Below are positions 11,120 to 64,000 of a DNA stretch of 64,000 bases, piece by piece. A model generated the notes under the pieces. That model was not told the DNA's origin and did no database searches. It saw only the letters and a program-made list of their open reading frames with translations. Numbering within the stretch: the first letter of the stretch is position 1; each line of letters starts with the position of its first letter. This stretch comes from a virus. The position numbers and the translations under genes were made by a program. The stretch lies in the IMG/VR virus record IMGVR_UViG_3300034018_000240; one strand, 5' to 3'.

Positions 11120-11570
11120 ATTAATAGGGGGGATGTGTCGATCCCCCAATTGTAGGAGGGGTGGCAAGCTGGAAGTACCCTCTCCTCCCATGGACACAAT
11201 AGGGGTAGGGGGTATGTAAAATTTTTGGTAGGGGGTTGTTAATTGTTCCATGTGGAACATTCTGTCTAAGCAATTGAAGACTAGGGGGTTAGCTGGCCCA
11301 AGTGTTAAATGTTGTGTCACACTTTTTCAAATATTTGTGACAGATTTGGCAAGTTATAACAAGTCTATATTCTGCCAAAAGTCAAGCTATAGCTTTACCC
11401 TAGGGGATGTTTAGTCAAGGGATAGCTTTACATAATGTGTCTTATTATACCCATAAGCATATAGTTTGGTCTTTATAAGGGACATTATATCTTAGGGCAT
11501 ATAAAAATAAATTTGGTGGGTATAAATATTTACCTGTATCTTTGGGGGGGATTTAGGGGGGGCCCCATCT
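11120..11570. repeat. divergent regulatory hub with TAGGGG(G) iteron-like repeats, short palindromes and G7 tracts; candidate early promoter/operator region and/or replication origin
   Basis: TAGGGG(G) copies at about 11125, 11152 (variant), 11200, 11205, 11229, 11282, 11401 and 11554. Inverted repeat GGGGGAT-GTGTCG-ATCCCCC at 11128-11147. Palindrome TGTTCCA-TG-TGGAACA at 11244-11259. GGGGGGG-ATTTA-GGGGGGG-CCCC at 11544-11566. Transcription polarity switches here. Confidence 0.5.
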
Positions 11571-13450: not shown

Positions 13451-13769
13451 GAAAACTACATACGTAAATACAGAGCTTGAATGGGCAGAAGTACAGCTAA
13501 AGTCTTGGAAAGCATACGTTGATGCTAATCCACTACATGAATTGAAAGATAGGATTGAGTGGAAACCTACAGCTAAAGGAGGAATGTTACCTATGGTCAT
13601 AGCCTCTATTGAAGCTCAAGGTAAGTTTGTCCAAGAGACAATGAAAAACTACCTAGCATTGGTAGAAGTGGTAGATAAGTTAAGAAACATGGAAGAAGCT
13701 AAGGTGGAAGTGAGAGGAAAAGGTGAATTATCAGGAGCTGCTGCTGAGTTCTTAGCAAATAGAAAATGA
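13437..13769 (+). CDS. hypothetical protein immediately upstream of terL; positional candidate for the small terminase subunit
   Basis: 110 aa, overlaps the terL start by 4 nt. Only position supports the TerS idea. Confidence 0.45.
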   Translation: MATIKKTTYVNTELEWAEVQLKSWKAYVDANPLHELKDRIEWKPTAKGGMLPMVIASIEAQGKFVQETMKNYLALVEVVDKLRNMEEAKVEVRGKGELSGAAAEFLANRK

Positions 13770-35605: not shown

Positions 35606-38600
35606 TCAAGGAACATCTAACGTAAGACAAGAATTTAATCTTGGCAGAGTTGGATTAGACATGGACTCTTCTGTAAATCAAATACAGAAGGGTAAGCTTT
35701 CTTATGCTCTAAACGCAGCATTAGAAAACTTTGACGCTAATTCTGTAAGCTATCAGAATGAGCCAAGTAATGAAGCTTGCTTAGAGTTTCCTGAAGGCTT
35801 TCAGCTTATTGGAACTCATTTCATACAAGAGAAAAACAAACACATATTCTTCTTAGCGAATCCTCAAACAGGAGGAAGTGAGATAGGATATATGGATAAC
35901 AATGATTGTGTATATCGCACACTTTGTACTCCTATTCCTGATACAGACTTAACAGTTTGTGCTAACTCAGAATGTTTAAACTTTGATATAAACTATCCAA
36001 TACACAAGGCTGTACATAAGATTACAAACTGTACCACTGAGGTTTATTGGACTGATGGATTAAATCCAAGAAGATATATTAACATTGAGCAAGTTCCATA
36101 TGTTTTTTCATATGAAGGAGGTAATACTTGTGATCCAACTATTCTAGTAGTAGATGGACAAGGAGTTCTTGATTGTAATAAGTTAGATGTACAACCTAAC
36201 TTTCAAATTCCTAATATAGAAGTTGCTGAAATTGTTGTAGGAGGAGATTTGAGAGCTGGTACTTATCAATTTGCTATTCAATATGGTAATGCTTCAGGAG
36301 ATGCTTATACATCCTACTTCTCTATAACTAATCCTACATCTATTGCTAATACAGAAATAACAACTCCTGATTTTCAATATTCTGTAGGTGAATCTATTGT
36401 ATTAAATATTACTAACTTAGATGTTACAGGATACTTCCAATACTTTAACTTAGCTGTTATAAAGACCATTAATAATGGTACCACTGTAGAATTAGTGGGA
36501 ACATATAACATTGAAGAAAAGTCTACAAGTATAACTTATACAGGACAGAACACAACTCAGATTCCTTTGAGTCTTGCAGATGTTCTTGAAAAGTTTCCTT
36601 ATTATGAGATTGCTCAAGATGTAACAAACGTACAAGATGTTATTGTTTGGGACAACTTAACTTCTATTGATAGAATCAACTATCAAAGCGTTGCTAATCA
36701 AGTACAACTTCAATGGGAGACATATAAACTGCCAGCTGGTAACACCTATGCTGATGGTTTTTATACTTCCAACTTAAGAGGATATTTAAGAGATGAGGTT
36801 TATGCATTTGAAATTGTATTCTTATTAACCAATGGTAAGCAAACAGATGGTTTTCATATTCCTGGTAGATCACCAATTTCTAATGATTTAACTCCTATTT
36901 ATGAAACTGGTCCTAATGCAACTCCTGACTTCATAGGTACTGCTACTAATGTTGAACCTGTTACACTTTATAAATATAGTCCTAATTGGAAAATATATAA
37001 TACAGCCAGTGTATCTACAACGTATCCTGTTCCTACAGACAATACTAGGAAGATAGGAGAGGCATACCCTTATCAATCTGGAGACTTTGCATATTGGGAG
37101 TCTACTGAGGAGTATCCATGTAACGTAGATGTATGGGGAGACTTAGCTGGTAAACCAATTAGACACCATAAATTTCCTGATGTTCTTGTAAGTCCTTACT
37201 TTGAGAGTCCAAGCATTGTATATAATGGAGGTCAGATAGAACCTGTAATGCAAGTTGCCAATGCTATCTATCCAATAGGTGTGAAGATAGATGTACAACA
37301 AGTGGCATTTGCTATTCAAAGCTCTAGTTTAACAAATGAAGAGAAGGCATCTATTGCTGGATTTAAAATAGTAAGAGGTAATAGAAGTACAAACAAATCT
37401 ATTATTGCTAAAGGTATTCTTAGAAATGTAGGTAAATACACTAGAGAAGATCCTGCTGATCCTAATGCTACATACTACTACTATCCTAACTATCCATACA
37501 ATGACTTAAGTGAAGATCCATTCTTACTTGAGAGAAACAATGCTTACAACTCTCAATGTGATACGTTCTCTGTATCAGTGACAACTCCTGGTATCTTACA
37601 ATACACAAACTGTTTTACAGGAGAAGTAGATACACAAGCTTTTACTAGCAGTACCACTGAAATATGTTCTATCACACTTCCTGTTGTAAATAGTGGTTCT
37701 GCAACATTTACAAATACTACAACTACTACTTATACAATTACAAATAATTCAGCTGTTAGTTCTGTTACATTTAATTATACAGATCCAGTTACAGGAGCAT
37801 TACAAAGTATAACAGTAGGTAGTGTTGTAGGTGGTAACAACGTTAAAACATTTAACTCTACCACTTTCCCTGTAAGAACATCAGGACTAAGTAATTATAA
37901 AATAGTAGCTAGCAACACAAGTGAAAACTTAAATTGTTATCCTAATAAATTAGATGGATTTAATAATCCTGAGTCTGCTTACAGACAAGTATTTAATTCT
38001 CCAGAGACTTCTTTTGGACAACCTACACTAGGTAATGTTCTTAAGTTAGAGAGTGTATTATTTGGTGGAGGAAGAGCTCATTTTGTTGAAGTGCAGAAAC
38101 ATGCTATGTATAAGCTTATCACTGAACAAACACAAGTTGATGCTTTAACCTCTAGTAAGAGAATAGCTGATCTTGGGGGATTTAGTCCTACAGCATTCTT
38201 TACAGCATATCAAACTTACTTACAGATTTATATCAATGGTATTAGTAGACAAAACTTTGCATATTCATTTAACTCTATATCTAGTTATGATTATAGTGCA
38301 GATATTTCTAATAATCAAGGAATTAAACAAAGACAACTTGATCTAGCTCAATACGTATTTCCAGGTGTACAGAACGTAGGTGATAATTATGATCTTAATA
38401 ACTGGAACAGAGAGTCTTCAGTTTATGTTAAAACTATTGATGTTAGAAATGGAATACCTGTATCACCTTTGCCATATCCTAATGACACCCCTTCTCTTGT
38501 TGTAGCAGGTGTAAGTCAAATTAGTGACACTTCAAGATTTACAATTTCAGAAGCAGAAAACTGTGCTAGTCCTGAAGCTCAGAGAGATATCAAAGTAGTA

Positions 38601-41559: not shown

Positions 41560-42426
41560 ATGGCTAAAACAGTAATAATAAGATTAACTTGCTCAGGTGG
41601 CAGAACAGGACCCTTTGATATCTCTGATAACTTAGGGACAGTCTTGGGCATTGACATTACTAAACAAGACCTTATTGATGGATATACTGTTAGTGTTGCT
41701 GACTCTGTTACTACAATAATTATAAGATCTAAAGGTAAGTGTTCTACTAGCATTAATGTTACAATTGGTACAGCTACAAAAGAACAGCTTGCTGCTTTAG
41801 ACTACACTGTATGTAACACAGGATCTATATGGAAGCATTTAGATGATACAATACATTATAACAAATACTATGGTAATGTAGAACCATACATAATTGAATA
41901 TCCATTTGCTTATCAAACCTATGATGAGATACTTCAGAATGTTAAAGATTATAGTAAGGTGTATAACTATATACCATCTGTAGATGGAGTGGTTAATGAA
42001 ACTGCTAAGATAGAGGTTGATAATCAATGGTTTAACAAAGCTGTTCTATATAATGGACAACAGTCTACAGGTATATTAGAACTTGTACCAAAGCCAATCA
42101 ACAACCTAAAACAATACTTAGCTTACCCAATATATAATGACTTTAGCAAGACTATCACTTATACTAAGTCAGATAACTTCTATCAATATAATACATTCTG
42201 GGGATTAGTTAAGAATAAATCATTACCTTTGTTTAGAACAAGTTGTGAGTCTTTATCAGTAGATAAGGTTGTAAATCAAGTGAATATGGATTATGGAAAA
42301 CGTTCATTTAAGAAAGAACCATTGAGAGCCAAAGACTTAAAGGTAAGACACATCCTTGACAATAGCTCTGAAGCACATATAGTTTCTCAATTCATTATTG
42401 CACCTGCTCAAATCTCTTATAAGTAA
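41560..42426 (+). CDS. TGPFDL family paralog 3 with extended C-terminal domain (288 aa)
   Basis: IRLTCSGGRTGPFDISDNLGTV...LIDGYTVSVADSVTTIIIRSKGKCSTSINV shares the same module. Confidence 0.55.
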   Translation: MAKTVIIRLTCSGGRTGPFDISDNLGTVLGIDITKQDLIDGYTVSVADSVTTIIIRSKGKCSTSINVTIGTATKEQLAALDYTVCNTGSIWKHLDDTIHYNKYYGNVEPYIIEYPFAYQTYDEILQNVKDYSKVYNYIPSVDGVVNETAKIEVDNQWFNKAVLYNGQQSTGILELVPKPINNLKQYLAYPIYNDFSKTITYTKSDNFYQYNTFWGLVKNKSLPLFRTSCESLSVDKVVNQVNMDYGKRSFKKEPLRAKDLKVRHILDNSSEAHIVSQFIIAPAQISYK

Positions 42427-48566: not shown

Positions 48567-51161
48567 ATGGCATCGTTTACTGATAAATCCTTACAATTCA
48601 ACCCTTACATCCAAGAGCTCCCTGTGGAGGCCATGGTGCAAGTGGGCATGCAAAAGCAAGCCCAGTATGATCAAGGTGTGCAAAAAATTCAGAATGAAAT
48701 TGATCGAGTTGGTGGTATAGAATTATACAGACCCCAAGACAAACAGGTATTACAATCTAAACTCAATGAGTTAGGTAGTAGATTAAAGACTGTGGCAGCA
48801 GGAGACTTTTCTAATCAACAACTAGTTAACTCAGTTGCTGGTATGACAGGTCAAATTATTAAAGATGAAAACATCATAAACGCTGTATCATCTACGCAAC
48901 AATATAAAAAAGCTGTTAAGGAAAGAGAAGAATATCTAAAAGATGGCAAGACTTCTCCATCAAATGACTGGTTGTTTCAACAAAAAACTAACAAGTGGAT
49001 GAATGGAGATGTAAAAGAAACATTTAGTGGAGGGTATGATCCATACACAAACTGGAGAAAAAATGCATTAGATATTATAAAGGATCTCACTGGAGATTCA
49101 ACTATTACAGAAGAAGATTTTACAACAGTTGTTGGTGAAGATGGGAAACCTCAAGTGGTCTTAGCAGATGCTACTACAAGAACAAAACTTGCAGGTGTGT
49201 CTCCTGACCAAATCAAACAAGCACTATCTGTAGGTTTAACACCTGCTGATTGGAGACAGTTAGAGATAGATGGTGTATATACATATAGTAATGTTACTGA
49301 TCCTAATTTATTTAAAGAGAATGTTAATAGTGAATACTTAGATAAGTCTGAATACTTCACTAAACAAAAACAAGCTCTTGAGAATTCTTTAAGTTCTACA
49401 AATTCAAATGTTCAGAAACAAATGATTCAAGATAAGATAAATGGTCTTGATTCTACAATTAACAAACTTAATAAAGAAAGAGATAGTATATTAGGTCTTG
49501 TTGATAGAGGAGATTTGGAAAGAGCTAAGGCAAACTTATTTACTCTTAACTCTATTAACAACTTTGCTAAACCTTTCTCTCATACAGAAGTTGAGATCAC
49601 AAAAGAAGATAGTCCTGCAGCTCAAATGCAAATGCAAAGGGAAACAAAAAATCAAGCTTGGAAGATACATAAAGATAATATGTATTGGAAGTCAAGAGAA
49701 GTCAAAGCTGCAGAAGAGGCTAATAAAATAGCAAAGAAAACAGCAGAAGGATATGGTGCTTTTGCAGCTCCTGTAGATCAGGATACTCTTCCTAAATTAA
49801 CTGTTGGTGAACTTACAAGAACAACAGATATAGAGTTAGGTAAAATTAAAGATAGAGATGAAGCTTTTTTAAAGTCTCAAGGTAAAACTAAAGAATGGTT
49901 TGAACAACAAAGAGCTGCGTGGGAAACAAGACCTACAGGGGTTAGTCCTGTTGTAGCTAACTATTTTAATACTACAGAAAAAGAAAGAAGACAAGCTGAA
50001 GCTAATCAAGAATTAATATTAGATGTTAGAAGAAAGGCAGAAGCTGAACATGGTACAATAGATAAGCTTATTCCTAAAAATGCTCCTACTGTTACTTATA
50101 AAAAAGGTAATGAAGTATATCAATATACAGCTAAAGACTTTGTAGACTTTAATACAGTAGCATATAAATATAGAGGTACTGGTGGTGGTACAGCTCCAGG
50201 TGGAGGATCTGTTGTTGGTATGGCAGGAACTCCTGTAGCTTCAGCAGATGCTAAAGCTAGACAAGAGTTAAGTCCTAAGATGTATAACTTGTATAAGATT
50301 TGGAGTAAGATGCCAGCCAAGAGATATGATTCTGACAAGGTTATATTAGCTCAACTAGACAATTATGCAAAGACTGTAAATAAGCCTTATAAAGAAACCT
50401 TACAAAAGATTGATAAGACTATGGAAGATACTTTTAAAAATAGGATTTCTGTAAGTCAAGCTGCTGGATATAACATCCCTTCAATAACTCCTGCTCAAAA
50501 AGGAAGTTTAAAAAGCTTTTTAATTGCTGCTGCTGCTGCTGCTGAGAAGAGTGGTGGTAAACTTGCAGGCTCTCCTGATTTTAATGTTGAGACTGCTAGA
50601 GAAATTGCAGGATCAGAAAATCCAAACTTTTCAATAGATGTTGCTGAAGGCACTGAATTCCAAGAACCTTATTATAAAGTTACAGCTGTTGGTCCAGGAG
50701 GAAAAGCAACTAGTTTTAGATTAACTCCAGAACAAAAAATAGGAGGCTTTGGTACTCAATTTGATGATGTAGCATCACAACAACTAAGACCATATTTAGA
50801 TCAAATAAATAAAACAGGAGGAATGACCACTGCCAAAGATGGTAGTGCCAGGACAACTGTTAGCAATGCTTTCTTAGGTAATCTTGATTTTGAAAATGTA
50901 AGAACCTATGGTGTGAAAGCAAATATCATACAACTTAGTCCAGGCAATTATACACTAGGTATCAAAGCATATGATCCTATAAGAAGAAGTTGGACTACTG
51001 ATGAGATGTACTATCCAAGTGTAGGAAGTATGACTAAGGAAGGACTTAACATGGCTATAAAAAATATGAATGATAGTGAGATATTTAGATTGATAAATGA
51101 AAGACCAGCAACAGCTGGTGACTTACAAAAAATACAAAAAGCTTCTCAAAAACCTTTATAA
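48567..51161 (+). CDS. large virion protein of unknown function (864 aa)
   Basis: Long ORF, TAATG-coupled to the giant ORF downstream. Confidence 0.55.
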   Translation: MASFTDKSLQFNPYIQELPVEAMVQVGMQKQAQYDQGVQKIQNEIDRVGGIELYRPQDKQVLQSKLNELGSRLKTVAAGDFSNQQLVNSVAGMTGQIIKDENIINAVSSTQQYKKAVKEREEYLKDGKTSPSNDWLFQQKTNKWMNGDVKETFSGGYDPYTNWRKNALDIIKDLTGDSTITEEDFTTVVGEDGKPQVVLADATTRTKLAGVSPDQIKQALSVGLTPADWRQLEIDGVYTYSNVTDPNLFKENVNSEYLDKSEYFTKQKQALENSLSSTNSNVQKQMIQDKINGLDSTINKLNKERDSILGLVDRGDLERAKANLFTLNSINNFAKPFSHTEVEITKEDSPAAQMQMQRETKNQAWKIHKDNMYWKSREVKAAEEANKIAKKTAEGYGAFAAPVDQDTLPKLTVGELTRTTDIELGKIKDRDEAFLKSQGKTKEWFEQQRAAWETRPTGVSPVVANYFNTTEKERRQAEANQELILDVRRKAEAEHGTIDKLIPKNAPTVTYKKGNEVYQYTAKDFVDFNTVAYKYRGTGGGTAPGGGSVVGMAGTPVASADAKARQELSPKMYNLYKIWSKMPAKRYDSDKVILAQLDNYAKTVNKPYKETLQKIDKTMEDTFKNRISVSQAAGYNIPSITPAQKGSLKSFLIAAAAAAEKSGGKLAGSPDFNVETAREIAGSENPNFSIDVAEGTEFQEPYYKVTAVGPGGKATSFRLTPEQKIGGFGTQFDDVASQQLRPYLDQINKTGGMTTAKDGSARTTVSNAFLGNLDFENVRTYGVKANIIQLSPGNYTLGIKAYDPIRRSWTTDEMYYPSVGSMTKEGLNMAIKNMNDSEIFRLINERPATAGDLQKIQKASQKPL

Positions 51162-54100
51162 TGGCAGATACTCCTTTAATAGACAGGGCATTATTAGATT
51201 CATCATTGAATGATTATACACCTACTGAACTTCCTGAAAGACCTGCAAGTGTTCCTTATCAAAGCTTGCGAAGTCAATACGAAGGAACTGGTATTCCTAT
51301 GATGGATGGAGAACCTACTCCTACTGCATTAAGTGCTCTTGAGAATGCTGTATTAACTGCAGGTAGAAATGATGGTAAGAAGATGGCAGGTGGCATTGAT
51401 AGAACTTTAACAGAGGTAAGTAGTGATAGATATAAGAGCTTCATGCCTGGTGATTATAATAATGAAGATGCTTATGCTCAAAGTCAAAGTTGGGCTAGTA
51501 AAATGGTTAATGGTGTAGGTAAAGGTTTAGTTCTTACAGGAACTACTTTCTTACAATCTACTGTAGGACTAGTAAATGGTCTAGCTAACTTTGCAAACTC
51601 TGGAAGATTTGCAGATATTTATGATAATGACATGAATAGGTTTTTAGATGAGGAAGTTGTAAAGGCTTCTGAAAACATAATGCCTAACTATTATAAAGCA
51701 GGAGAAAGAGAACAAGATTGGTATTCTCCAAGTAAGTTATTTAGTGCTAACTTTATTTGGGATGGAGTTGTTAAAAACTTAGGCTTTGCTGCAGGTGCTG
51801 CATTGTCAGGAGGAGCATATGCTGCTGCTCTAAAATCAATCCCTCTTACAGCTAGACTGTTCTCAGTGGGTAAGGGTGCTCAAGCTTTAGCTGCTTCAGA
51901 AGAAGCATTGCTTGCTGCAGATAAAGCAGCTTCTACTTATGGTAAACTTAAAGGACTTTCTGATAAGTTTTTATCATCTTATAGCTCATTAGGTCAAGGA
52001 GGTAGAATTACTGTTGCAGCTTTAGGTACAGTGGGTGAGGCTGGCTTTGAAGCATACCATACGCTTAATGATTTTAGAAATAAAAAGATTGAAGAATATA
52101 AAGAAGCAAATGGTGGTCAAGCTCCTATGGGAGAAGATCTGTTAAAGATTAATCAACTTTCTGAAGAAGTGGGTAATTCTTCTTACTTTGCAAACGTTGG
52201 TTTATTAACTGCTACTAACTATATTCAGTTTCCTAAAATACTAGGAGCTACATACAAAGGGGAGAAAGGGATTGTTAATTCTCTTACAAAAGAAATTGGT
52301 GAAATTACAACAGACGCTACTGGTAAATATATAGCAGCTCCTAATAGATTTGGAAAAATCTTATCTACATTAAATAAGGTGAGACCATATACCTTCTCTG
52401 CTTCAGAAGCATTTGAGGAAGGTGCACAATACGCAATTGGCAAATCTACAGAAAACTATTACAATAAGAAATATAACAACGAACCAACTAATTGGTTAGA
52501 TGGTGTTGCTGCAGGAATTAGTGAAACATTAACTACTAATGAGGGTATGGAGAACATACTTATTGGTGGATTGTCTGGAGCATTAATGTTAGGTCCTGGT
52601 AAGTTTGGTGAAGCAAAAGAAAAGTCAAAGAATACACAAGCTGCTATTACAGAATTTAATAATGCTATCTTGTCTGACTTCTCTAAAGAAGTTAAAGGAT
52701 CTGTTAATAGAGGTACAACTATACAAGAGGAAAGAGAAACAGCAATAAGAAGAGGTGATATTCTAGAGAGCAAAGACTTAGAGCGTGATTACATAATCAA
52801 CTATCTAACTCCTCGTATTAAGTATGGTAGATTTGATCTTGTTCAAAGCGACATTGCTCAGTATAAAACTCTAGCAATGACTGATGAGGGATTTGCACAG
52901 TTACAATCAGAAGGTAAGGCATTAGATACAGATACTAAAGAAGCATATCTACAAAGATTAGCTAACTTAGAAGTTACTGCTCAGAACATTAAATCATTAT
53001 ATCAATCATTAGATGTACGTTATGGTGGGTTAGTAAATGCTGATGGTAAGCCTGTCTATTCACCAAAGGTGATGGATCAGATGATATATGCTGCAACTAA
53101 GGTGGCAGACTATGATGAAAGACTTCCTCAATTAATGACAGTGTTAGATGCTGTAGGTATTGATACTACTACTGTTGTTAATGACTTAACTAATGGAGAC
53201 AGTGATTCTTACATAGCAGCTGTTGAAAAAATTAAGGCATCAAAGTCTATTAATGAAGATGAATTAATGCAGACATTAGAAGATGTTGCAGAGCTTGCTT
53301 TGCGTAGAGACAACTTCTTGTTTGAATATAATGATATAAAGAACAATCCTAGTAAGTATGACACTGCAGAAACTATGGATAAAGATGCTCCAAAGAAAGA
53401 AACTGTAAAAGTTAAGACTAAGGATGGTGAAGAAGATATTGAAGTAGATACAGAATACTACTTAGGTAGAACTGTTAAGTATGACAAAGATGGTAATGAG
53501 GTTTATGGATTTCCAAGATTAACTATCCTTGGAGAAAATGAAGATGGTACTATTAAGATTAAGGATTCTAATGGTGTTGTAAGAGACATCTCTAAAGAAG
53601 AATTAGCTGGCTATAAATTAGGCAAAGTGTCAGACACTTTAAATAATAAAAAAGCCAAATACTATATGGAACATAGTAACACTGTGTTTCAATTTAACTT
53701 TGGTAAAGGTAAGAAAGTTAAAGGTAGATTAGAATACTCCCCTAAAGATGGAGTATTAAACTTTGTGTACAGAGACACTAAAGGAAAGATTAAATCTATT
53801 GAGGTTACAGGTAGTCAATTTGTAGCTCAAGAAGGATATGATGTTCCTATGATTATGGCTGTTGGTGAACTTACACCAATTCAAAAACAAGCATTAGATG
53901 AATTTGTTAGTTTAAAAGAATCAAAATTTTCTGCTAAAAGAGAAGCTAGATTAAAAATACTAAATGACATGTTTGATGAAACATCATCAAAGCTAATGTC
54001 TACACAAAAGTTATTAGAACAAAAATACAATGAACTTGAGAAGATAACAGGCGATCTTACTAATGTTGAAACCAAGCTTAAGGCTGGTGAGATGACTAAG

Positions 54101-57100
54101 AAGAATGCGTTCAAAAAAACCACAGCCAACGCACTTAGAGCTGCAAGTAAATTATCTAAACTAAGAGATAAGTTAATTGATGAGATTAGAGAATTAGAAT
54201 CTCAACAAGAAGAACTTGAGTTTACACAAGCTTACATTGCTGACATGGTTCAGAATATAGGTGAGCTTCCTGCAGAAAGTGAAGACTTTATCAATGAATT
54301 AAAAGAACAAAAGTCTCTTGTTGAAGATTTAATATTAGATACTGGTAAAAATATTAATGCTTTGTCTAAGCTCTTAACTAATGTTGAGAAAGCTTTAGAT
54401 ACTGCTGTAGATTTGGCATTAGATCTGATTAAGAAGTTTGAAGCTAAATATCCAAACTTACCTTACACTCCATTAGCTTTACAAGAATATTTGAATGCTA
54501 ATCCAGAAGTTAGAAGAAATAACCCTGAATTAATGTCAGACTTAATTGAGTTTGAAAGAGATCTTGCCAATATTGATGAGTTAGATGTAACTCCTAATGA
54601 ACGCAGTGTTGCTGAATTAAGAGAAGAGTTACAAGGTTTACAAGATCAGTTAAAGGAATATGAGCAAGACTTAAAAGCTAGAGAAGCAATTTTAACTAGA
54701 TTTCAAGATGTTGCTAAAGCTTATAAGTTACAGAAAGAACAAGAGAAAAAGTTAAAGAGTGATGGTAAACTTATTAATGCAGTTATTGGTACATTAAGTA
54801 AGGAACAATTAGACAATACTCCATATAGTGTTAAGTACGAACCTACTTCTAAGAAAGGTCCAAAGATATTAGTTACATCTACTGTTGCTAGTAAGAATAT
54901 ATTAGGCTATGCACGTGCAAATTACTTTGGTAATAAGTTCAACTCATTCCCTAATAAGAATAATATATTTGGTGTCTTAGTTACTTCTGCAAATGAAGAC
55001 AACATTATACCAGGACTTACTTCATATTTACAGAACAACAATACAGACATAGATCCAACAAAAACTATTGCATTAGTAATGGTTGAGGATCAAGGCAATG
55101 GTAACTTTGTATTGGTAGGTCAAGATGGGCAACCTCTTGCAGAAGGCCAAGATAAGTTAGAGAATGCTGTATTCCAAGTAATGCCTGACGAGAGTTTACA
55201 ATGGGGTCCTGACTTTGGTAATGAAACAATGTTCAGAAGCAACACACCTGAGCAAACTAGAAAAGAGTTAAAAGATCAATACATTGCTTTCAGAAATGAA
55301 ACATTAAAAGATCCTGCTGTTAGATTACAATCAATCACTCCTTCTTTTGGAAGACCTACTAGAGTTAGTATTACATTACCTGATGGTAAGAAGGTTACTG
55401 ATCCAAGTGCTGCTGTGTCTGTAAAGGCTGCTGGATTAATTGAAGACAAAGACTTAGTTGAAAAGCAGTTAATTGAAGTGCCTACTGTTGCAAAAGATAT
55501 TAGTAAAGGAAGCACAGAGTTTACAGATGTGCTTGGTAGAATATTCTTAGTATTAGATAATGCTTATGTTAAGTTAAAGAACAGACTGTTCAATACTAAA
55601 GAAGCTGAAACTATCTATGAGGTTCTTAATCAATTATCTAACAATGTGTTTGATGATGGTGGTGTAGAAGCTAGAAGTGAATATTTAATTGACTGGTTAA
55701 GAAGTGTTACATTCTGGGGCAAACCTAAAGAAGGCAAAGACCCTGGTTATAATAGTATATGGTTTGAGAGAGCAGATGGTGAATTAAGATTGTTCTTCTC
55801 TGGTAAAGGAGAGAGTCTTTCTTTTACACCACAAGCAATGGAAACTCAGAAAGATGCAATTGTCACTCTTCTACAAAACATGTACAATAATGTTAATGCT
55901 AGAAAGGTACAAAACACAGATGAATATAATTTAACATATGAAGAAATCATAGGTATTGGTGAGAATGGTATTCCACAAACAAAAGAATGGCAAAACTATC
56001 AAACATATTTGTTATCAGATGAGGGAAGAACAGCTGATGAGATTCCTTTGTTTACTGATATTACTGCGTTAGAATCTCCTGAAGATACTAATAGAGAGGG
56101 TGTATACTTTACACTTAGCGATGCTGCTGACAACTTTACTATTACAGAGATAGTTAGAACTGTGCCTAAGACTGTTGTTCCTGGTGGCATTAAGCCTACA
56201 GCTGCAACACCTGTTTCTGCAGAAGAAGAAACATTTACTGTAGGAGAAACACAAGAAGCTCCAATAGAAACTAAGACTGGTTCAAAGTTTGTATTAGATG
56301 GTAAGACTAAGAATATATTTATTACTCCAAAGGGAACTAGAATAGCTTTCACAGCTAATCGTAATTTATTGGCTAAAGGAGATATTGATAATGGTATTAA
56401 GATATTAAAAGGAGAAGACTTAGCTAAAGCTGAGGAAGCTTTAATTGCTGCAAATGTTAAGAAGGAAGATATGGGAAGAGCTTTAAAAGCTCCTATTGCT
56501 AACTTCTTAAATGTACCTGTACAGAAGGCAACTGCTGTAGAAGAAGATGAAGAAGCTTTTGCAATACCTGATGAAACAGATGCAGATGATGTAGTAATAG
56601 AGATTGAAGAAAAGGCACCAGCACAAATTACAACAAAGGGCCCTAGTGTAAGAAGTGGTGCTATAAAAGAAGCATTATTAGAAGATGAAGATGGAGACTT
56701 ACGTGAGATATTAGAGAATGAAATAAAGACATTCAAATCTGAAAACTGGAAGAAGTTAGAACAATGGTTAAGAGCTAATCTACCTAACGTTCCTGTATAT
56801 AGAGTGAAGAATGTTATCAAAGCTACAGGGGGAAGAAAGGCTTGGGGTATGTATAAGAATGGTGCTATCTATGTATACACTAATGCAGAGGCTGGGACAA
56901 CATATCATGAAGTGTTTCATGCTATCTGGAATATGTTCTCTGACCCTAAGGAACGCAAGGCTATTGTAAATGAATTCAAGAATAGAAAGGGCAGCTTTGT
57001 AGATAGAGTTACAGGACAAGAAGTTAAATACTCAGAAGCAACTCCTGGTCAAATCAAGGAACAACTAGCAGAAGAGTTTAGAGAATATGTATTAGATAAG

Positions 57101-60100
57101 AAAGTTCCACCTAAGCCTGCTGATGGTAGACCTTACATCATTAAGTTATTTACTGATTTAGCAAACTTTATTAAGGAATATTTCTTAGGTCCTCAAGCTG
57201 CAAGAAACACAGAAGAGTTATTTAAGAGAATAGGAGAAGGTTATTATAAGAACGCATCTCCATATCAGTCTAAGTTAGCATTAGCTAAACCTGGTATTAT
57301 TGATGTTGAAGATGCTATAGGCGACCCAACTAGTGAGTATAGTTTAATTGCTAATGGTCTTACAGGAGAACAAGTACATGATACTATTCAACAAATGACC
57401 TATTCTACTCTTACAAATCTTATTGCTACTAATCAAAGCCTATTTGATATCCCTGCTAAGAACAGAGCTGTAATATATAAAGAAGCTAAAGATAATCTTA
57501 AGTATACAGTTGTAGATAAGATTAAGAACATTGCTGCTAAACTAATGAAAGAAGGTATTGCTACAAAAGAAGATGTAGCTCCTGAGGTAGCAAAAGCTGA
57601 GCAGTTGTTTGCAATCATAGATAAAAACTGGGATGAGATAACTCAAATCTTTGAAGAACAATTATTATCTTATTCTATTGAATTTGATGAGAATGACAGT
57701 ACTCAAACAACAAATGAGAACAATACAGGTAGAGGAGACTATCAAGAGTCAGAGAAAATAGACAAGTTTAAGAAGGCTAACGCTGCTATTAAATTATTGT
57801 TAGCTACCATTCCATACAGAAATGCAAGAGGTAAAAGAACACTTTCTTCAATCAATGGTGTTAGATTAATACCAATGAGCAAGGTGTATATAGACCTTAA
57901 GAATGCTTTATACAACTCAGATACAGTAGATGATATGATGGAAAAACTACGTGAGTTTGTAGAGTCTCAAAAACCTGAATATGGTGTAATATACCAAAGA
58001 CTTACAGGACAACCTTCTTCTGAGAAGTTGAATCCTTATGCTAATATAAAAACTGATGCAGATCTTCAACTGGTTACTTCTTTCTACAATGTAATGAAGG
58101 GACAAGCTCCTGACGTGGTTACAGTGTACACAGCTCCTGATGGAACTGTAGTGACAACTGATATGTCTGTAGGCACAGCATCTAAGCAAATTGCTATTGA
58201 TATGGAAAACAGTATCATTAGCTCTATACAAAAGAACTTAGGAAAGTACTATAGATATGATGCTCCTAACAAAATGTACGTAGCTATTAAGAAGAACATT
58301 GAGAATCAACAGTTAGGATCATTAGAAAGAAGTGTATTATTTATGAAGTCTTTAGGAGTGGATGTTCCTATTAGAATGATTAGAAGACTTGGCTTTGAAT
58401 CTGACTTTAACAAAGCTGTTGCTGGTATAAAGAAGAACTTATTAGAAGCTGAGCAGATTAAGTTTATTTCTAGTAAGACAATTAACACTGCAGGTAGAGT
58501 TAAGGAGATTGCTGACATGCTTGCTAAGATTCAAAATCCTGACTTTGAAAGTACATATTTTAACCTTGAAGGTGATAGAGTACAGTCTTTCATAGGTGGT
58601 AATGCTATTAGTAGCTTACGTGATTTCTTAACTAAGATAAGCAATAAGAAACAATTAGTTGGCTCTAGATATGAATACTTACTTACAGATAACTTTGCTA
58701 ACATTGGTTCTGTATTCATGGACAAGATATTTGATAAAGATTCAGGAAACAAATTACCTAAGGGTGATGAGATATTAAGCACAGCGTATGCAGGTGGTAT
58801 GATTGATGAGGGTCTTGGCAAAAGAAAAGACCCAGCTAGTCTTACACCTAGTGAGCGTTTGAAGGAAGAGTTAAACCTTAACCTAGCAGGATACTATATG
58901 AACCTTGTTCCAGGAGATGCCTCTTTGGACTGGGCAAACTATGTAGGTAATACAGTTACATTAAATAGTTTAAAGAAAGACAATAGCTCAATACATAAAG
59001 TATTTAAAGGATACTTCTTGTCAGAGTTAGCTGTTTCTAGAGAAGGTCGTAAGATTGTACAAGATGAGAACGAGACTAGAAAGTCTACAGACCTGCGTTT
59101 CTTCAAGAATATATTAGGACCATCATTACATGAAGATATTGTATCATATGATCCAAGCAAAGAGAAATCTCTTGAGGATGTTTACACACACTTTGAATCA
59201 AGAATAAACACTGCTATAGACGCATTTGTTAAGAAGGATATTGAGAGAAGAAAAGCTGTGTATTCTAATTACAATATTCTTTCTGAAGATGAGAATGGTT
59301 TTAACTTTAATGGAGTGGAATTTGAAAAGAAAAGATCTTTAAGTGAGAATGATGTTGATGTGAATATCAAGTACTTATCTGTTAACTATATGATTAATAA
59401 CATAGAGTTACATAAACTTGTATACTCAGATCCATATTTCTACAAAGATGAATTGAAGCGTATTAAGAGTTTTTTATCTCCACGTCAGGCTATCATATAT
59501 GGTTCAGCAGGTTTAAATGCTGTAATGAATAATGTATATAATGATGACTATACAGATATTGATGATCTTGGATACACTGACTTCACAGCTGACTATTTCA
59601 AAACCATCACATTAGAGGATGTCAAAGGTGTAGCAGATGTAGAAGGATTTGCTAAAGAGTATTCATCATTCACTGAAACAGATGGTGGTGGTATGATTAG
59701 TATGCAAGCATATCGCAACTTTAGAATACGTGCTTCAAATTGGAACCCTAATGAGGAAAGACAATACAGATATGATGTTGCTTTTGAGAAAAGAGACAAG
59801 GGTCAGGACCTTTCTCCTAATGAATCAAATTTATTAGAAGCAGGCAATCCTCAAGTAAAGAGTGCATACACTCCATTGAAACCAGTTGTAGCTGGGGCTA
59901 AGATGAGTAAACAATCTTACAATGATGTTGTATTAGATAAGTTTGCCCTTTATCCATTGAGTTACAGAGTGTTACATGAGATTAATAAAGATTCAAATGC
60001 TATCAAGTTATACAACAAGATGCAGAAAGATAAGATTGACTACGCTGTATTTGACAGTGGTAGAAAGGTGGGGGCTGATGTATTAGTTAAATTATATGAT

Positions 60101-63100
60101 AGCAAGGGTAACTTTAATGATGCTCCTATTGCAGATGCAGATAAGATTAATATACCATTTAGTATTATAAGTGTACAGTCTGAGGTGCCTTCTAAGGATG
60201 AGGCTTTTGTAACAAGAGGTTCTCAGATTACCAAATTGGTAACATTAGACTTCTTACAAGCTGGTGTACCTTTTGACTTCATGTCTGATGAGAAAGATTT
60301 TAACAAGCGTTTAGAAGCTTGGGAAAACTTAGAAGATGAAACAGCTATGGCTAATGCATCTCCATTCTTCAAAGAGATATTGGAGAACCAAGACTTACTA
60401 GAGGAAATGACTGATATTGGTTATAAAAACCTTCTTGATAGATTAGGTATTAAACAAACCAAAGCAGGATTTGAGATTGTAGATCCTGAGAAGATTGCTC
60501 AAACATTACGTTCTGAGTTATTCAAAAGAGAAGTGAATCGCAATATAGTGGCTGCACTTGTGGGCTTTGAGAAAGGTCAAGTTTTAATTGAAGCTAGCCC
60601 TATGTACAGTCAAGTGAGAAACATTCTTTATTCTATAGTGGATAAGAACATTGTACGTCCAAAGATTAATGGTGGATTAAAAGTACAGATTCCTTCTACA
60701 GGATTTGAATCAGTAAGACCTGTAGGAAAGAATGGATTGTTTGAGTCAGATGTATTAAAGTTTTATGAGAAAGGTGGAGAGCGTGTAGCTGAGGTGATGG
60801 TAGGAAGATGGTTTGATAGTGATATGTCTGATGAGGACTTATTAAAATATTTAAACACTACAGATGAAGGTCAAGCTTTATTAAAGGGTGTAGCGTTTCG
60901 TATACCTACACAGAAGCAAAACTCTGTGGATGTAATTAAGATAGCTAAGTTTCTTCCTAAGGAGTTTGGTGACTCTGTTGTTGTACCAGCTGCGTTAGTT
61001 CAGAAGGTTGGATCTGACTTTGATATAGATAAGTTATCTATGTATTTCAAGAACATCTACAAAGGAAAAGATGGTAAGCCTAAGTTGATTCCATACTTTG
61101 GAATGGGCAAGGATGCTATCAAGAAGTTTGAAGAAATGTTTGACAAAGGAGAGTTCTTAACTAAAGAACAATTACAAGAGCTTGACAGATACATAGCAGA
61201 AGAACAAATCATGTTGGAAGACTTGATTGAAGAGAAGTCTAATGCAAGTAAGTTAATTACAGCAATAGTTGGAAACTTAAATGGTCTTATTAATGAAGAG
61301 GAATTAACACAGGAATTTACTAGAGGTATCAAAGCTAAAGATCAAATAATCAATCTATTATACAAGAAGTCTATTGAGAACCAATACATTCAGTCTTTAG
61401 AAAACATTATTGGAAGTGAGGCTAACTACACTAGATTAGTTACACCAAACAATGCTAAAGTGTTAAAAGATATGTCAATTGATATTACAGACAAGTTAGG
61501 TCTTGGTTCATTTGATTATTCTTCCACTGACAATATGTTGAATCAAATATTCATGTCTAGACTTAGACAGGCATTTGTACGTGGTAAATATGCAATTGGT
61601 CTTGCTGCTGTAGCTCAAACTAATCATGCTCAGAACCAACGTTCTAATATGTATGTTGATAAATCAATGATGTATAAATTAAGCAAGTCTGATCAGAAGT
61701 GGTTAGGAGATGCTAATGTTAACTTTAGCAAATATAATACAGTGAGGGTTGGTGGTAGAACAGTGCCTAGTCTTTCTGGTATTAAAGATGCTAACAATAA
61801 ATATGACATATCTGATATCATTGGTCAGTTTATTGATGGATATGTGGATATTGCTAAGGGTCCTTGGATTATGGAATTAGGTGCAAGTCCTAATGTAGCT
61901 CCTACATGGTTGTTCTTAGTTAAGATTGGAGTTCCAATTAAAGAAGTTGCCTACTTTATGAACCAACCAATCATTCGTGATTATGTACGTGAGTTAGAAA
62001 ACAGTGGATACACTTGGTTATTTAATGACTCAACTGTAGCTGCTATTAAAGACTCTGAGAAATATAAGGTGGACCCAAGTAAGGTACAAGGATTGAATAG
62101 TATTCCTAACGTTGCTGCTCTTGAGAAGAACATAGGTAAGAAGTCTTTTGATGTTGCTGGAAAAGCTGAACAACAATTCATATTAAATGAGTTCTTGAAG
62201 TATGGCATGATGGCTAATCAATTGTTTAAAGTGGTACAAGGATCTAACTTTGATACAACAGCGTTCAATGACCCAATGTTAATCTTTAAGAAAGAAGAGC
62301 AGTTATCTCAAGCTAGAGAAACTATTATATCTTCTGTAGATAACTTATTAAATAAATCTTTCATAGGTAGAGTTAGAATAGGATTACGTGATAGTAGAAA
62401 TGCTATTGGTCAGACAGCTTTGACTTCTGATACAAGAAGGGTAAGAGGTGTGCTTCAAAGCGTACTAAGACCTTACGTTAACTTGAACGATAGACAGTTT
62501 GTTAAGGTGGCTAGAAAAGCTGTTAATGATCTTTTTGACTGGGCTGTGCAAATCAATCCTACATTTAAGATCAATATGGAGAGAGACCTATTATCTAAAG
62601 ATGGTACAGCAAAACAGATTACAGATTATTTTAATGATATTAAAAATGATCCTGAGCACGTTTTACATAACAATGTTATTGTAAACTCTTTGGCTCCTAA
62701 GTTTGCAGGAACAGAAGAAGAGCGTCCTAATAATCTTTACATGCCAGGTAAGGATAACAAAGTATATGATCAAAACAAAGTTATATATGGCTTTGAAGAG
62801 TTGAGAAACTATATGGAGTCTACAGGTGATCTTCCTTTGTATAAGAAGTTGGTAAAGCTTTCTATATTACAATCTGGTTTATCTACATCTGCTATATCTT
62901 TCACTTCTCTTATTCCTTATGATGACTTTGTAGAAGAATACAATGATATTTTGTCCAAGTTAGAAACTTTACCTAACTTAGCTGACTTTGCTACATTGAA
63001 TGTTTTTGAAAGAAACAACTGGAATGATGATGAAATTGTTCCTCACAAGAAAGCACAATGGAAAACAGAGAAGCAAAAAGATGGTAAGTTAAAGACTAGA

Positions 63101-63598
63101 TATGATAATAATGCATTAACTATCTTAAACACTGGTGCAAATATTGCAATGAGAGATAAGAAGATACCTCAAGTTATTAAGATATCAACATTGTCTAGAG
63201 AGAGCACTAAGGATATCATTGTATATAGTTGGGAAGAAATACCTGCAGGAAAGACAAGAGCAGAGATGGTCAAAGCATCAGATTTCTCTTTTATTAAGAA
63301 AGGGTTATTTAAGAAAGTGATAGATGATGGTATTGATCCTTTAATTACATATAACAGATCAGGATATACATTCATTGTCTACAAAGCCATCAATGCTTGG
63401 GGTGATAGTTTTAGAGCTAATGAGTTCTATGACTTTGCTAACAAGTCTAAGATTGATAATGGGTTCATAGAGGTAGATGAGGTTAGTGATGATACTATTA
63501 AATCAGTATTCATAGGTGGTCAAAAGACTCCTCCTGTTGAAGCTTCAGAAATAGATGACGTATTAAATAAGAAAGATAAAGGCTGTAAAAAACAATAA
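51161..63598 (+). CDS. giant multidomain virion protein (4145 aa): HExxH zincin-like motif plus C-terminal DFDID motif consistent with the crAss-like two-barrel virion RNA polymerase
   Basis: Single uninterrupted 12.4-kb frame. HEVFH at 56906-56920 (residue about 1916, context GTTYHEVFHAIWNMF). DFDID at 61016-61030 (residue about 3286, context VQKVGSDFDIDKLSMYF), matching the DxDxD variant of the DPBB catalytic loop recalled from crAss-like virion RNAP literature. Long coiled-coil regions. Confidence 0.7.
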   Translation: MADTPLIDRALLDSSLNDYTPTELPERPASVPYQSLRSQYEGTGIPMMDGEPTPTALSALENAVLTAGRNDGKKMAGGIDRTLTEVSSDRYKSFMPGDYNNEDAYAQSQSWASKMVNGVGKGLVLTGTTFLQSTVGLVNGLANFANSGRFADIYDNDMNRFLDEEVVKASENIMPNYYKAGEREQDWYSPSKLFSANFIWDGVVKNLGFAAGAALSGGAYAAALKSIPLTARLFSVGKGAQALAASEEALLAADKAASTYGKLKGLSDKFLSSYSSLGQGGRITVAALGTVGEAGFEAYHTLNDFRNKKIEEYKEANGGQAPMGEDLLKINQLSEEVGNSSYFANVGLLTATNYIQFPKILGATYKGEKGIVNSLTKEIGEITTDATGKYIAAPNRFGKILSTLNKVRPYTFSASEAFEEGAQYAIGKSTENYYNKKYNNEPTNWLDGVAAGISETLTTNEGMENILIGGLSGALMLGPGKFGEAKEKSKNTQAAITEFNNAILSDFSKEVKGSVNRGTTIQEERETAIRRGDILESKDLERDYIINYLTPRIKYGRFDLVQSDIAQYKTLAMTDEGFAQLQSEGKALDTDTKEAYLQRLANLEVTAQNIKSLYQSLDVRYGGLVNADGKPVYSPKVMDQMIYAATKVADYDERLPQLMTVLDAVGIDTTTVVNDLTNGDSDSYIAAVEKIKASKSINEDELMQTLEDVAELALRRDNFLFEYNDIKNNPSKYDTAETMDKDAPKKETVKVKTKDGEEDIEVDTEYYLGRTVKYDKDGNEVYGFPRLTILGENEDGTIKIKDSNGVVRDISKEELAGYKLGKVSDTLNNKKAKYYMEHSNTVFQFNFGKGKKVKGRLEYSPKDGVLNFVYRDTKGKIKSIEVTGSQFVAQEGYDVPMIMAVGELTPIQKQALDEFVSLKESKFSAKREARLKILNDMFDETSSKLMSTQKLLEQKYNELEKITGDLTNVETKLKAGEMTKKNAFKKTTANALRAASKLSKLRDKLIDEIRELESQQEELEFTQAYIADMVQNIGELPAESEDFINELKEQKSLVEDLILDTGKNINALSKLLTNVEKALDTAVDLALDLIKKFEAKYPNLPYTPLALQEYLNANPEVRRNNPELMSDLIEFERDLANIDELDVTPNERSVAELREELQGLQDQLKEYEQDLKAREAILTRFQDVAKAYKLQKEQEKKLKSDGKLINAVIGTLSKEQLDNTPYSVKYEPTSKKGPKILVTSTVASKNILGYARANYFGNKFNSFPNKNNIFGVLVTSANEDNIIPGLTSYLQNNNTDIDPTKTIALVMVEDQGNGNFVLVGQDGQPLAEGQDKLENAVFQVMPDESLQWGPDFGNETMFRSNTPEQTRKELKDQYIAFRNETLKDPAVRLQSITPSFGRPTRVSITLPDGKKVTDPSAAVSVKAAGLIEDKDLVEKQLIEVPTVAKDISKGSTEFTDVLGRIFLVLDNAYVKLKNRLFNTKEAETIYEVLNQLSNNVFDDGGVEARSEYLIDWLRSVTFWGKPKEGKDPGYNSIWFERADGELRLFFSGKGESLSFTPQAMETQKDAIVTLLQNMYNNVNARKVQNTDEYNLTYEEIIGIGENGIPQTKEWQNYQTYLLSDEGRTADEIPLFTDITALESPEDTNREGVYFTLSDAADNFTITEIVRTVPKTVVPGGIKPTAATPVSAEEETFTVGETQEAPIETKTGSKFVLDGKTKNIFITPKGTRIAFTANRNLLAKGDIDNGIKILKGEDLAKAEEALIAANVKKEDMGRALKAPIANFLNVPVQKATAVEEDEEAFAIPDETDADDVVIEIEEKAPAQITTKGPSVRSGAIKEALLEDEDGDLREILENEIKTFKSENWKKLEQWLRANLPNVPVYRVKNVIKATGGRKAWGMYKNGAIYVYTNAEAGTTYHEVFHAIWNMFSDPKERKAIVNEFKNRKGSFVDRVTGQEVKYSEATPGQIKEQLAEEFREYVLDKKVPPKPADGRPYIIKLFTDLANFIKEYFLGPQAARNTEELFKRIGEGYYKNASPYQSKLALAKPGIIDVEDAIGDPTSEYSLIANGLTGEQVHDTIQQMTYSTLTNLIATNQSLFDIPAKNRAVIYKEAKDNLKYTVVDKIKNIAAKLMKEGIATKEDVAPEVAKAEQLFAIIDKNWDEITQIFEEQLLSYSIEFDENDSTQTTNENNTGRGDYQESEKIDKFKKANAAIKLLLATIPYRNARGKRTLSSINGVRLIPMSKVYIDLKNALYNSDTVDDMMEKLREFVESQKPEYGVIYQRLTGQPSSEKLNPYANIKTDADLQLVTSFYNVMKGQAPDVVTVYTAPDGTVVTTDMSVGTASKQIAIDMENSIISSIQKNLGKYYRYDAPNKMYVAIKKNIENQQLGSLERSVLFMKSLGVDVPIRMIRRLGFESDFNKAVAGIKKNLLEAEQIKFISSKTINTAGRVKEIADMLAKIQNPDFESTYFNLEGDRVQSFIGGNAISSLRDFLTKISNKKQLVGSRYEYLLTDNFANIGSVFMDKIFDKDSGNKLPKGDEILSTAYAGGMIDEGLGKRKDPASLTPSERLKEELNLNLAGYYMNLVPGDASLDWANYVGNTVTLNSLKKDNSSIHKVFKGYFLSELAVSREGRKIVQDENETRKSTDLRFFKNILGPSLHEDIVSYDPSKEKSLEDVYTHFESRINTAIDAFVKKDIERRKAVYSNYNILSEDENGFNFNGVEFEKKRSLSENDVDVNIKYLSVNYMINNIELHKLVYSDPYFYKDELKRIKSFLSPRQAIIYGSAGLNAVMNNVYNDDYTDIDDLGYTDFTADYFKTITLEDVKGVADVEGFAKEYSSFTETDGGGMISMQAYRNFRIRASNWNPNEERQYRYDVAFEKRDKGQDLSPNESNLLEAGNPQVKSAYTPLKPVVAGAKMSKQSYNDVVLDKFALYPLSYRVLHEINKDSNAIKLYNKMQKDKIDYAVFDSGRKVGADVLVKLYDSKGNFNDAPIADADKINIPFSIISVQSEVPSKDEAFVTRGSQITKLVTLDFLQAGVPFDFMSDEKDFNKRLEAWENLEDETAMANASPFFKEILENQDLLEEMTDIGYKNLLDRLGIKQTKAGFEIVDPEKIAQTLRSELFKREVNRNIVAALVGFEKGQVLIEASPMYSQVRNILYSIVDKNIVRPKINGGLKVQIPSTGFESVRPVGKNGLFESDVLKFYEKGGERVAEVMVGRWFDSDMSDEDLLKYLNTTDEGQALLKGVAFRIPTQKQNSVDVIKIAKFLPKEFGDSVVVPAALVQKVGSDFDIDKLSMYFKNIYKGKDGKPKLIPYFGMGKDAIKKFEEMFDKGEFLTKEQLQELDRYIAEEQIMLEDLIEEKSNASKLITAIVGNLNGLINEEELTQEFTRGIKAKDQIINLLYKKSIENQYIQSLENIIGSEANYTRLVTPNNAKVLKDMSIDITDKLGLGSFDYSSTDNMLNQIFMSRLRQAFVRGKYAIGLAAVAQTNHAQNQRSNMYVDKSMMYKLSKSDQKWLGDANVNFSKYNTVRVGGRTVPSLSGIKDANNKYDISDIIGQFIDGYVDIAKGPWIMELGASPNVAPTWLFLVKIGVPIKEVAYFMNQPIIRDYVRELENSGYTWLFNDSTVAAIKDSEKYKVDPSKVQGLNSIPNVAALEKNIGKKSFDVAGKAEQQFILNEFLKYGMMANQLFKVVQGSNFDTTAFNDPMLIFKKEEQLSQARETIISSVDNLLNKSFIGRVRIGLRDSRNAIGQTALTSDTRRVRGVLQSVLRPYVNLNDRQFVKVARKAVNDLFDWAVQINPTFKINMERDLLSKDGTAKQITDYFNDIKNDPEHVLHNNVIVNSLAPKFAGTEEERPNNLYMPGKDNKVYDQNKVIYGFEELRNYMESTGDLPLYKKLVKLSILQSGLSTSAISFTSLIPYDDFVEEYNDILSKLETLPNLADFATLNVFERNNWNDDEIVPHKKAQWKTEKQKDGKLKTRYDNNALTILNTGANIAMRDKKIPQVIKISTLSRESTKDIIVYSWEEIPAGKTRAEMVKASDFSFIKKGLFKKVIDDGIDPLITYNRSGYTFIVYKAINAWGDSFRANEFYDFANKSKIDNGFIEVDEVSDDTIKSVFIGGQKTPPVEASEIDDVLNKKDKGCKKQ

Positions 63599-63609: not shown

Positions 63610-64000
63610 ATGGCTGAATGTCAAGTATTTAGAAATGATGATGGTGTAATTGAAAGAGTAGAAGCTCCTAATGGGCAGCCTTCTACTCTATATAAAACTC
63701 TGCAAGATCTTGTAAAAGACAAGGAGCAAGCCTTACGTCTATGGGCACAGGTGTACACTGGTTCATTTAAGAACTGGTTTGGTGATTGGGAAAGAAAGCA
63801 AGGTTCTAAAGTAGTTGATGAAAATGGTGAACCATTAATAGTAAATGGTGATAAATTTCAATCAGATATAGTAACACCTGGACCTAATCAATTTAAGTCT
63901 GTACTTAATGAAGGATCATTTGCCATTGACAAGGGTGGATATGATAATACACAGGTAAGAACAGAAGCTATTCCTAGTGGAGAGGGAGTGGTAGCACGTA
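63610..64000 (+). CDS. hypothetical protein, 5' part only (runs off window end)
   Basis: ATG at 63610 (MAECQVFRNDDGVIERVEAPNGQPSTLYKTLQDLV...) is open to the window end. Confidence 0.45.
   Translation, partial: MAECQVFRNDDGVIERVEAPNGQPSTLYKTLQDLVKDKEQALRLWAQVYTGSFKNWFGDWERKQGSKVVDENGEPLIVNGDKFQSDIVTPGPNQFKSVLNEGSFAIDKGGYDNTQVRTEAIPSGEGVVAR

Follow-up and report, generated by a model that had tools for sequence, protein, structure and literature searches.

A 4145-residue open reading frame of an environmental phage joins a gp47-like cargo protein to a crAss-like virion RNA polymerase

A phage open reading frame (ORF) of more than four thousand codons raises two questions: whether the frame is real, and what a protein of that size would do. 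Such an ORF lies in the virus record IMGVR_UViG_3300034018_000240, of which we analysed a stretch of 64,000 nucleotides (nt), hereafter the window. It runs on the plus strand, as does every feature described within it, from an ATG to a TAA stop at 51161..63598, and encodes a protein of 4145 amino acids (aa) with a mass of 464.5 kDa and an isoelectric point of 5.2. A first-pass annotation had reported this single ORF with an HEVFH motif at 56906..56920 and a DFDID motif at 61016..61030, and had read it as a zincin-like module fused to a crAss-like two-barrel RNA polymerase (RNAP). Our recheck of the ORFs confirmed the frame and both motifs exactly as described, the motifs being aa 1916-1920 and aa 3286-3290 of the protein. 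The giant ORF is a real, intact fusion and no assembly artefact. We consider it very probable that its 465-kDa product is a cargo/ejection protein packaged in the virions of an environmental crAss-like phage, consisting of a gp47-like half and an RNAP half with a pair of domains of the double-psi beta-barrel (DPBB) type.

The RNAP half (57653..63595, aa ~2165-4145; its N-terminal boundary is approximate) is the counterpart of gp66 of phage phi14:2 and gp50 of crAss001. In tblastn and blastp searches, aa 2606-3607 matched phi14:2 gp66 ("Catalytic RNA polymerase subunit") with 23% identity and an E-value of 1e-30. A profile built from 10 clade sequences had a sole match in the PDB, 6vr4_A, over ~940 positions with an E-value of 5e-35. 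With phmmer against the PDB, the RNAP region failed to retrieve 6VR4 even at E 10, so BLAST or a clade profile is needed to see the relationship. For a T7-like RNAP, neither a Pfam RNA_pol match nor a PDB match other than 6VR4 was found. We placed the landmarks of the enzyme using the published gp66 boundaries and a residue mapping onto 6VR4. The catalytic core (59180..62035, aa 2674-3625) corresponds to gp66 787-1674 and spans the two DPBB domains as well as connector, bridge helix and trigger loop. Within it, the connector between the two DPBB domains is at 60161..60682 (aa 3001-3174, gp66 1095-1238), the bridge-helix equivalent at 61541..61633 (aa 3461-3491, gp66 1529-1559) and the trigger-loop equivalent at 61805..61921 (aa 3549-3587, gp66 1598-1636). 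The three aspartates of DFDID, in the context VGSDFDIDKLSMYF, correspond to gp66 D1361, D1363 and D1365. The octapeptide GSDFDIDK is identical in the window protein and gp66; it was found in 122 of 148 family representatives, the others being mostly fragments, and DFD[IV]D is invariant in the clade. Thus, the earlier proposal that DFDID marks a crAss-like two-barrel RNAP holds, and the core is predicted to adopt the two-DPBB fold, as judged from its alignment to the solved structure.

The motif by itself would not have sufficed. From the composition of the protein, 1.45 DxDxD motifs are expected and two are seen, DFDID and DEDGD, so DFDID is meaningful through homology only. We considered DEDGD (aa 1842, nt 56684-56698) as a second catalytic-type motif and rejected it as chance, since that number is expected and the motif lies in an acidic, Pro-rich, unconserved linker (56111..56710, aa 1651-1850). 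The RNAP half also differs from gp66. Identity is just ~21-23%, and gp66 is encoded on its own as a protein of 2180 aa, while the giant ORF has its RNAP as the C-terminal half. The N-terminal 740 residues of gp66, including the cleft-blocking domain, are not alignable; in the window protein, the HExxH domain and the aligned RNAP core are just ~440-500 residues apart.

What precedes the RNAP? The first-pass annotation spoke of fusion to roughly 3000 residues of additional material. The fusion is real, but the material is not anonymous: the first ~2100 aa are gp47-like by homology. This homology stops at aa ~2010-2120, and in relatives that encode the RNAP separately, its ORF is colinear with the RNAP part here. 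When the whole protein was scanned against Pfam, PHROGs and the PDB (phmmer), no match emerged, and segment-wise Pfam and NCBIfam scans gave none above cut-off. With blastp, aa 109-730 matched crAss001 gp47 aa 92-818 at an E-value of 1e-36 and phi14:2 gp67 at 4e-10. The N-terminal conserved module (51458..53560, aa ~100-800) is thus homologous to gp47 aa 92-818 and gp67 aa 47-416, which are virion cargo or "RNAP-associated" proteins. By tblastn it also matched many crassvirus genes annotated "putative RNA-polymerase subunit", and its conservation in the clade is 0.33-0.47. Transmembrane segments were sought in it, and merely marginal, unconvincing Gly/Ala-rich stretches appeared (aa 123-141 and 206-227, Kyte-Doolittle ~1.1-1.2). 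It is followed by a poorly conserved (0.25-0.33), indel-rich and probably coiled-coil segment (53711..54907, aa 851-1249), which had only sub-threshold Pfam matches of the coiled-coil type (Laminin_II, YscO, ATG16, Spectrin) and is missing from the tblastn high-scoring segment pairs in related loci L012-L016. A second conserved module (54908..56110, aa 1250-1650; conservation 0.38-0.54) had no Pfam or NCBIfam match, and no homolog was recognised beyond the clade.

The gp47-like half ends in the domain that carries HEVFH (56711..57460, aa 1851-2100), and within the N-terminal 2600 residues no other block is as well conserved. It is homologous to the C-terminal domain of crAss001 gp47: aa 1863-2010 matched that region by blastp (E 1e-10 to 1e-15), with GTTYHEVFH against GTTYHEAFH, and a deep family profile recognised the gp47 C-terminus with an hhalign probability of 98.9%. 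The order of N-module and C-terminal HExxH domain is the same in gp47, a stand-alone protein of 2341 aa annotated as cargo or "putative RNA-polymerase subunit"; in the window, this gp47-like part runs on into the RNAP. A chance HExxH is improbable because the protein has only 14 His residues, and 0.004 such motifs are expected from its composition. In an alignment of 143 family members, the first His and the following Glu of the motif (context GTTYHEVFHAIWNMF) are invariant, and the fifth position is Glu in 98 and His in 45. Downstream, a conserved [LI]AEEFR segment on a predicted helix contains E1971-E1972 (57071..57076), 51-52 residues past the motif, a candidate third metal ligand of the gluzincin type. 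E1971 is nearly invariant in the alignments. Position five is restricted to His or Glu and a Glu is conserved downstream, which together speak for the maintenance of a metal site.

We predicted the structure of this domain with AlphaFold. A first model (AF2, aa 1790-2170, 12 sequences) had a predicted local distance difference test (pLDDT) score of 58.6 and was too poor to use. A model from 32 sequences had a mean pLDDT of 72.8, with 75-93 in the core. It starts with an N-terminal helix, goes on to three strands and the HExxH helix, and later has a helix (118-135 of the model) bearing the nearly invariant AEEF with E1971. This is the topology of the zincin-like metallopeptidase (MPTase) domain of polyvalent virion proteins described by Iyer et al. 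(2017). We regard the domain as a probable metal-binding domain, HExx[H/E]...E, with a zincin-like topology in the model.

Several results weigh against calling it a zincin or limit that reading. A Foldseek search of the better model against the PDB returned no match, and no Pfam or NCBIfam peptidase model matched the domain even at E <= 5. In BFVD, the significant structural matches were merely other crAss-like large proteins, and the HExxE form of most of the family (98/143) is a non-canonical zincin ligand set. In addition, a profile of the domain found nothing relevant in the PDB. Comparisons with gluzincins (anthrax lethal factor/PPEP, ATLF-like) and minimal zincins (SprT/Spartan, Wss1, IrrE, ArdC, abylysin) gave scores below usual significance and no sequence-profile match, and these enzymes have HExxH, unlike the HExxE consensus of the window family. 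We also compared the domain with the "zincin-like" region of phi14:2 gp65 by hhalign; the probability was 0.1-0.5% with shallow and deep profiles, that is, no detectable relationship. Profile-profile links to phi14:2 gp65, gp67 and the gp66 N-terminus and to crAss001 gp49 were rejected. Taken as a whole, the interpretation in the first-pass annotation is partly supported. Because the ligand set is not that of a canonical zincin, "peptidase" remains our inference. The predominance of HExxE in the family, which is mildly new, matters for the design of catalytic-dead mutants and for peptidase annotation.

The two halves are encoded in one uninterrupted frame. The probability of 4145 stop-free codons at 35% GC is ~1e-133. 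In the assembly collection, 48 blocks index the identical 4145-aa protein, and we read it on contigs of 62-112 kb from at least five independent JGI and ENA samples. Of eleven related IMG/VR loci recovered, seven, all on diverged viral contigs, keep a single colinear open frame of 4123-4527 aa with 41-45% identity to the window protein. The recurrence of the identical protein and the open frames of the diverged relatives show that the frame is no assembly artefact; an interruption, which the first-pass annotation had named as a possible refutation, was not found.

The fusion is also common. We ran an exhaustive HMMER search with the junction segment aa 1850-2999, which holds the HExxH motif and the N-terminal part of the RNAP, and obtained 710 cluster representatives, 364 of them at E <= 1e-30. 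Family statistics rest on the 148 representatives that were retrieved, and the motif alignment given above on 143. At least 4000 aa are present in 97 of the 148, with a maximum of 5167, and most match the whole query in one stretch (positions ~1850-3050). The spacing from HExx[HE] to DFDxD is tightly conserved in the family, with a median of 1386 aa. Thus, the fused form of the RNAP is widespread, occurring in hundreds of 50%-identity clusters, and this metagenomic abundance of the two-protein fusion is mildly new.

Is the fusion itself new? The first-pass annotation presented it as a novelty and called the ORF one of the longest phage ORFs imaginable, and neither claim survives. RNAP genes of up to ~6000 aa are a hallmark of the Crassvirales (review PMC10136315), and relatives of the window protein reach the 5167 aa given above. 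According to Drobysheva et al., who refer to Yutin et al. (2018) for this point, proteins of the gp65/66/67 type are fused into one huge ORF in some phages. Drobysheva et al. described such fused polyproteins as "likely cleaved" and proposed that a zincin-like protease domain in the module may activate the RNAP or digest peptidoglycan. The claim of novelty fails because fused giant RNAPs and the associated zincin-like domain are already in the literature and because most top matches of our search are 4000-5167 aa long across the same junction. Like the published giant polyproteins, the window protein is a huge single ORF with a DxDxD/DFDxD motif and an associated zincin-like domain; unlike them, it fuses two of three proteins only. 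It is a solid, ordinary example of a documented class that is common in metagenomes, and it opens no new class of system. Its value lies in showing the fused crAss-like virion RNAP module cleanly and in repeated assemblies, in an environmental lineage with a terminase nearest to phages outside the Crassvirales.

The three proteins of the module are encoded as neighbours or near-neighbours elsewhere. In phi14:2, g067, g066 and g065 are adjacent, so that gp66 is flanked by gp67/gp47-like and gp65/gp49-like genes in a block of large virion proteins; Dulem virus 41 has a gp47-like gene (2474 aa), an RNAP gene (2247 aa) and a 1331-aa gene. The crAss001 module consists of gp47, gp49 and gp50, with the RNAP (gp50) and gp49 on the strand opposite to gp47. 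Judged by homology, the window ORF merges the first two members of this three-gene module, and the third remains a separate gene. That gene starts at 63610, 12 nt past the stop of the giant ORF, and is cut by the window end (63610..64000, plus strand, MAECQVFRNDDGV...). In identical contigs it encodes 1744 aa with weak resemblance to crAss001 gp49, and HExxH is absent from its product in clade members.

How would such a protein work? The proteins gp47/49/50 of crAss001 and gp65/66/67 of phi14:2 were detected in virions by mass spectrometry. By analogy with these phages, the window protein would be made late and packaged in the capsid, and would then be ejected together with the DNA and transcribe early genes inside the host. 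Its first ~2100 residues would act as gp47/gp67-type "RNAP-associated" cargo, made of the N-module, the coiled-coil spacer, the second module and the HExx[H/E]...E metal-binding domain. The last ~2000 residues would be a gp66-type single-chain two-DPBB DNA-dependent RNAP whose DFDID loop binds the catalytic Mg2+. Fused here are two proteins for which many crassviruses have neighbouring but distinct genes. The giant protein is extreme in composition, with a single Cys, near the C-terminus, besides the few His residues noted above; the scarcity of Cys could be related to unfolding and refolding on ejection. During or after ejection, the metal-binding domain would probably hydrolyse a target, which could be its own polyprotein, a segment that inhibits the RNAP, or the envelope or a protein of the host.

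One possibility, which we hold only tentatively, is self-processing, as the first-pass annotation had suggested. The HExxH domain would then be an active zincin endopeptidase and would split the 465-kDa precursor, either within the capsid or once ejected, to yield a gp47-like protein plus a free RNAP; it could also take off an inhibitory segment that blocks the cleft. This is consistent with the proposals of Drobysheva et al. given above and with Iyer et al. (2017), who suggested that embedded zincin-like MPTases process polyvalent virion proteins. The domain lies directly upstream of the RNAP, the parts are separate genes in some relatives, the first His and Glu of the motif are invariant and the predicted fold is zincin-like. 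On the other hand, HExxE, with its non-canonical ligands, is the form in two thirds of the family, and a conserved cleavage site was not identified. The stretch just past the domain (WDEI...SYSIEFDEND) is conserved and is no free linker. Moreover, crAss001 gp47 carries the same domain unfused to an RNAP, so the role of the domain is not limited to processing a fusion. As a naturally single-chain construct, the giant protein lends itself to the question of whether such polyproteins undergo cleavage.

The domain may instead act on the host at entry, a role that we hold just as tentatively. Its targets would be peptide stems of peptidoglycan, the envelope or defence proteins, and the giant protein would stay uncleaved in the ejection apparatus. 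Its presence in unfused gp47 fits such a role. Drobysheva et al. listed peptidoglycan digestion as an alternative, and the MPTases of polyvalent proteins were proposed to target host systems (Iyer et al. 2017). The RNAP-plus-zincin theme was also noted by Iyer et al. in N4-like virion RNAPs (vRNAPs), and the 2026 work on the N4 structure places an HExxH C1 domain within the giant vRNAP and describes that polymerase as one protein of ~3500 residues. Coliphage N4 gp50 is the closest functional analogue, being a giant, packaged and ejected RNAP with an HExxH zincin-like domain in one chain, if the window protein is indeed packaged and ejected. Unlike the window protein, it is a T7-like single-subunit enzyme and its HExxH domain is C-terminal to the polymerase. 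No sequence similarity to N4 vRNAP or to polyvalent proteins was detected, and the Pfam MPTase models gave no match; the likeness to N4 vRNAP is convergent.

A bolder proposal, which seems rather improbable to us, is that the family has an undescribed zincin ligand variant (mostly His/Glu/Glu, and His/His/Glu in a minority that includes this phage) permanently tethered to the two-barrel RNAP in an uncleaved 465-kDa ejection-and-transcription machine. If so, this machine would be N4 vRNAP's counterpart by convergence, built around a polymerase of unrelated fold, and the switch from His to Glu would mark a changed metal or chemistry rather than a self-processing peptidase. It is unlikely that the domain is no hydrolase at all; it would then be structural or regulatory, possibly metal-stabilised, docking on or regulating the RNAP, with HExxH an incidental variant of the HExxE motif. 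The reading in which a lost stop codon or a frameshift, arising from sequencing or assembly error, merged two or three genes is effectively refuted: some relatives are indeed split, but the identical product recurs across samples, seven diverged relatives keep one frame of 4.1-4.5 thousand residues, ~100 cluster representatives of at least 4000 aa cross the junction, and the split in relative L004 points the opposite way.

The split relatives are of several kinds, and fragmented RNAP ORFs are documented as well (review PMC10136315). In L004 and L005, the colinear sequence is broken into several frames. At L004:11020-11100 (ENA ERZ10646592 contig_31334), the apparent boundary between a 359-aa HExxH protein and the ORF of the RNAP comes from a frame change of one base within an A-run, GAGAAAACATAAGG. 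Because the change is a single base and the protein is colinear on both sides, this break (aa ~2163 of the window protein) probably goes back to an indel error in the homopolymer or to a frameshift that arose very recently. We had considered it as a natural module boundary and rejected it for the same frame change. L006:2870-2925 and L017:5144-5149 contain genuine in-frame TAA stops, at ~aa 2518 and ~aa 1100 of the window protein, respectively. This shows that the positions of gene splits vary within the family. At L005:12956-15448 (JGI 3300020048 Ga0207193_1005171), the RNAP region lies in 5-6 ORFs in alternating frames. At its C-terminus, the last of these fragments (764 aa called) additionally has a NADAR domain (PF08719); this ADP-ribose-processing module is lacking in the window protein.

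The surroundings of the giant gene are those of a tailed phage. The left arm of the window is on the minus strand and contains a DNA polymerase gene. The plus strand encodes terminase, portal, major head protein and tail fibres, together with a series of very large proteins (1853, 1055, 958, 864 and 4145 aa). The gene immediately upstream (48567..51161, plus strand) encodes the 864-aa virion protein of this block of large cargo and structural genes, and its TAA overlaps the ATG of the giant ORF (TAATG). A genome comparison found the giant RNAP gene in a block of large virion/cargo genes, as in phi14:2, crAss001 and Dulem virus 41. The terminase (13766-15808) best matched the unclassified Caudoviricetes Leptolyngbya phage Lbo-JY46, which has a cyanobacterial host, with 40% identity, followed by the Cellulophaga Lightbulbvirus phages phi17:2 and phi4:1 at 32% and by classified Crassvirales at 26-28%. 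Lbo-JY46 and phi17:2 were both absent among the RNAP matches listed. By its alignments, the RNAP module is clearly of the crAss type, in contrast to the terminase. The lineage appears mildly new in that its terminase is nearest to Lbo-JY46 and Lightbulbvirus rather than to classified Crassvirales.

Other parts of the window were also noted. The 1853-aa ORF (35532-41093) matches the N-terminal part of phrog_15100, and also phrog_37948 and, weakly, crAss001 gp44. A separate 288-aa ORF two genes downstream (41560-42426) matches the C-terminal end of phrog_15100 (positions 1588-1781). The two ORFs look like the parts of a further large virion protein, undivided elsewhere but split in this phage. 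A 632-aa tail-fibre protein (27208-29106) has many PHROG matches to collagen-like tail fibre and minor tail families at aa ~300-450. At ~10000-11500, the GC and AT skews change sign and gene orientation turns from minus, in the DNA polymerase arm, to plus, in the structural arm; this indicates a divergent transcription point and a possible early-promoter region. A DNA repair exonuclease (32164-33414; SbcD/Mre11-like, phrog_704, E 5e-45) is encoded amid the block of structural and tail genes.

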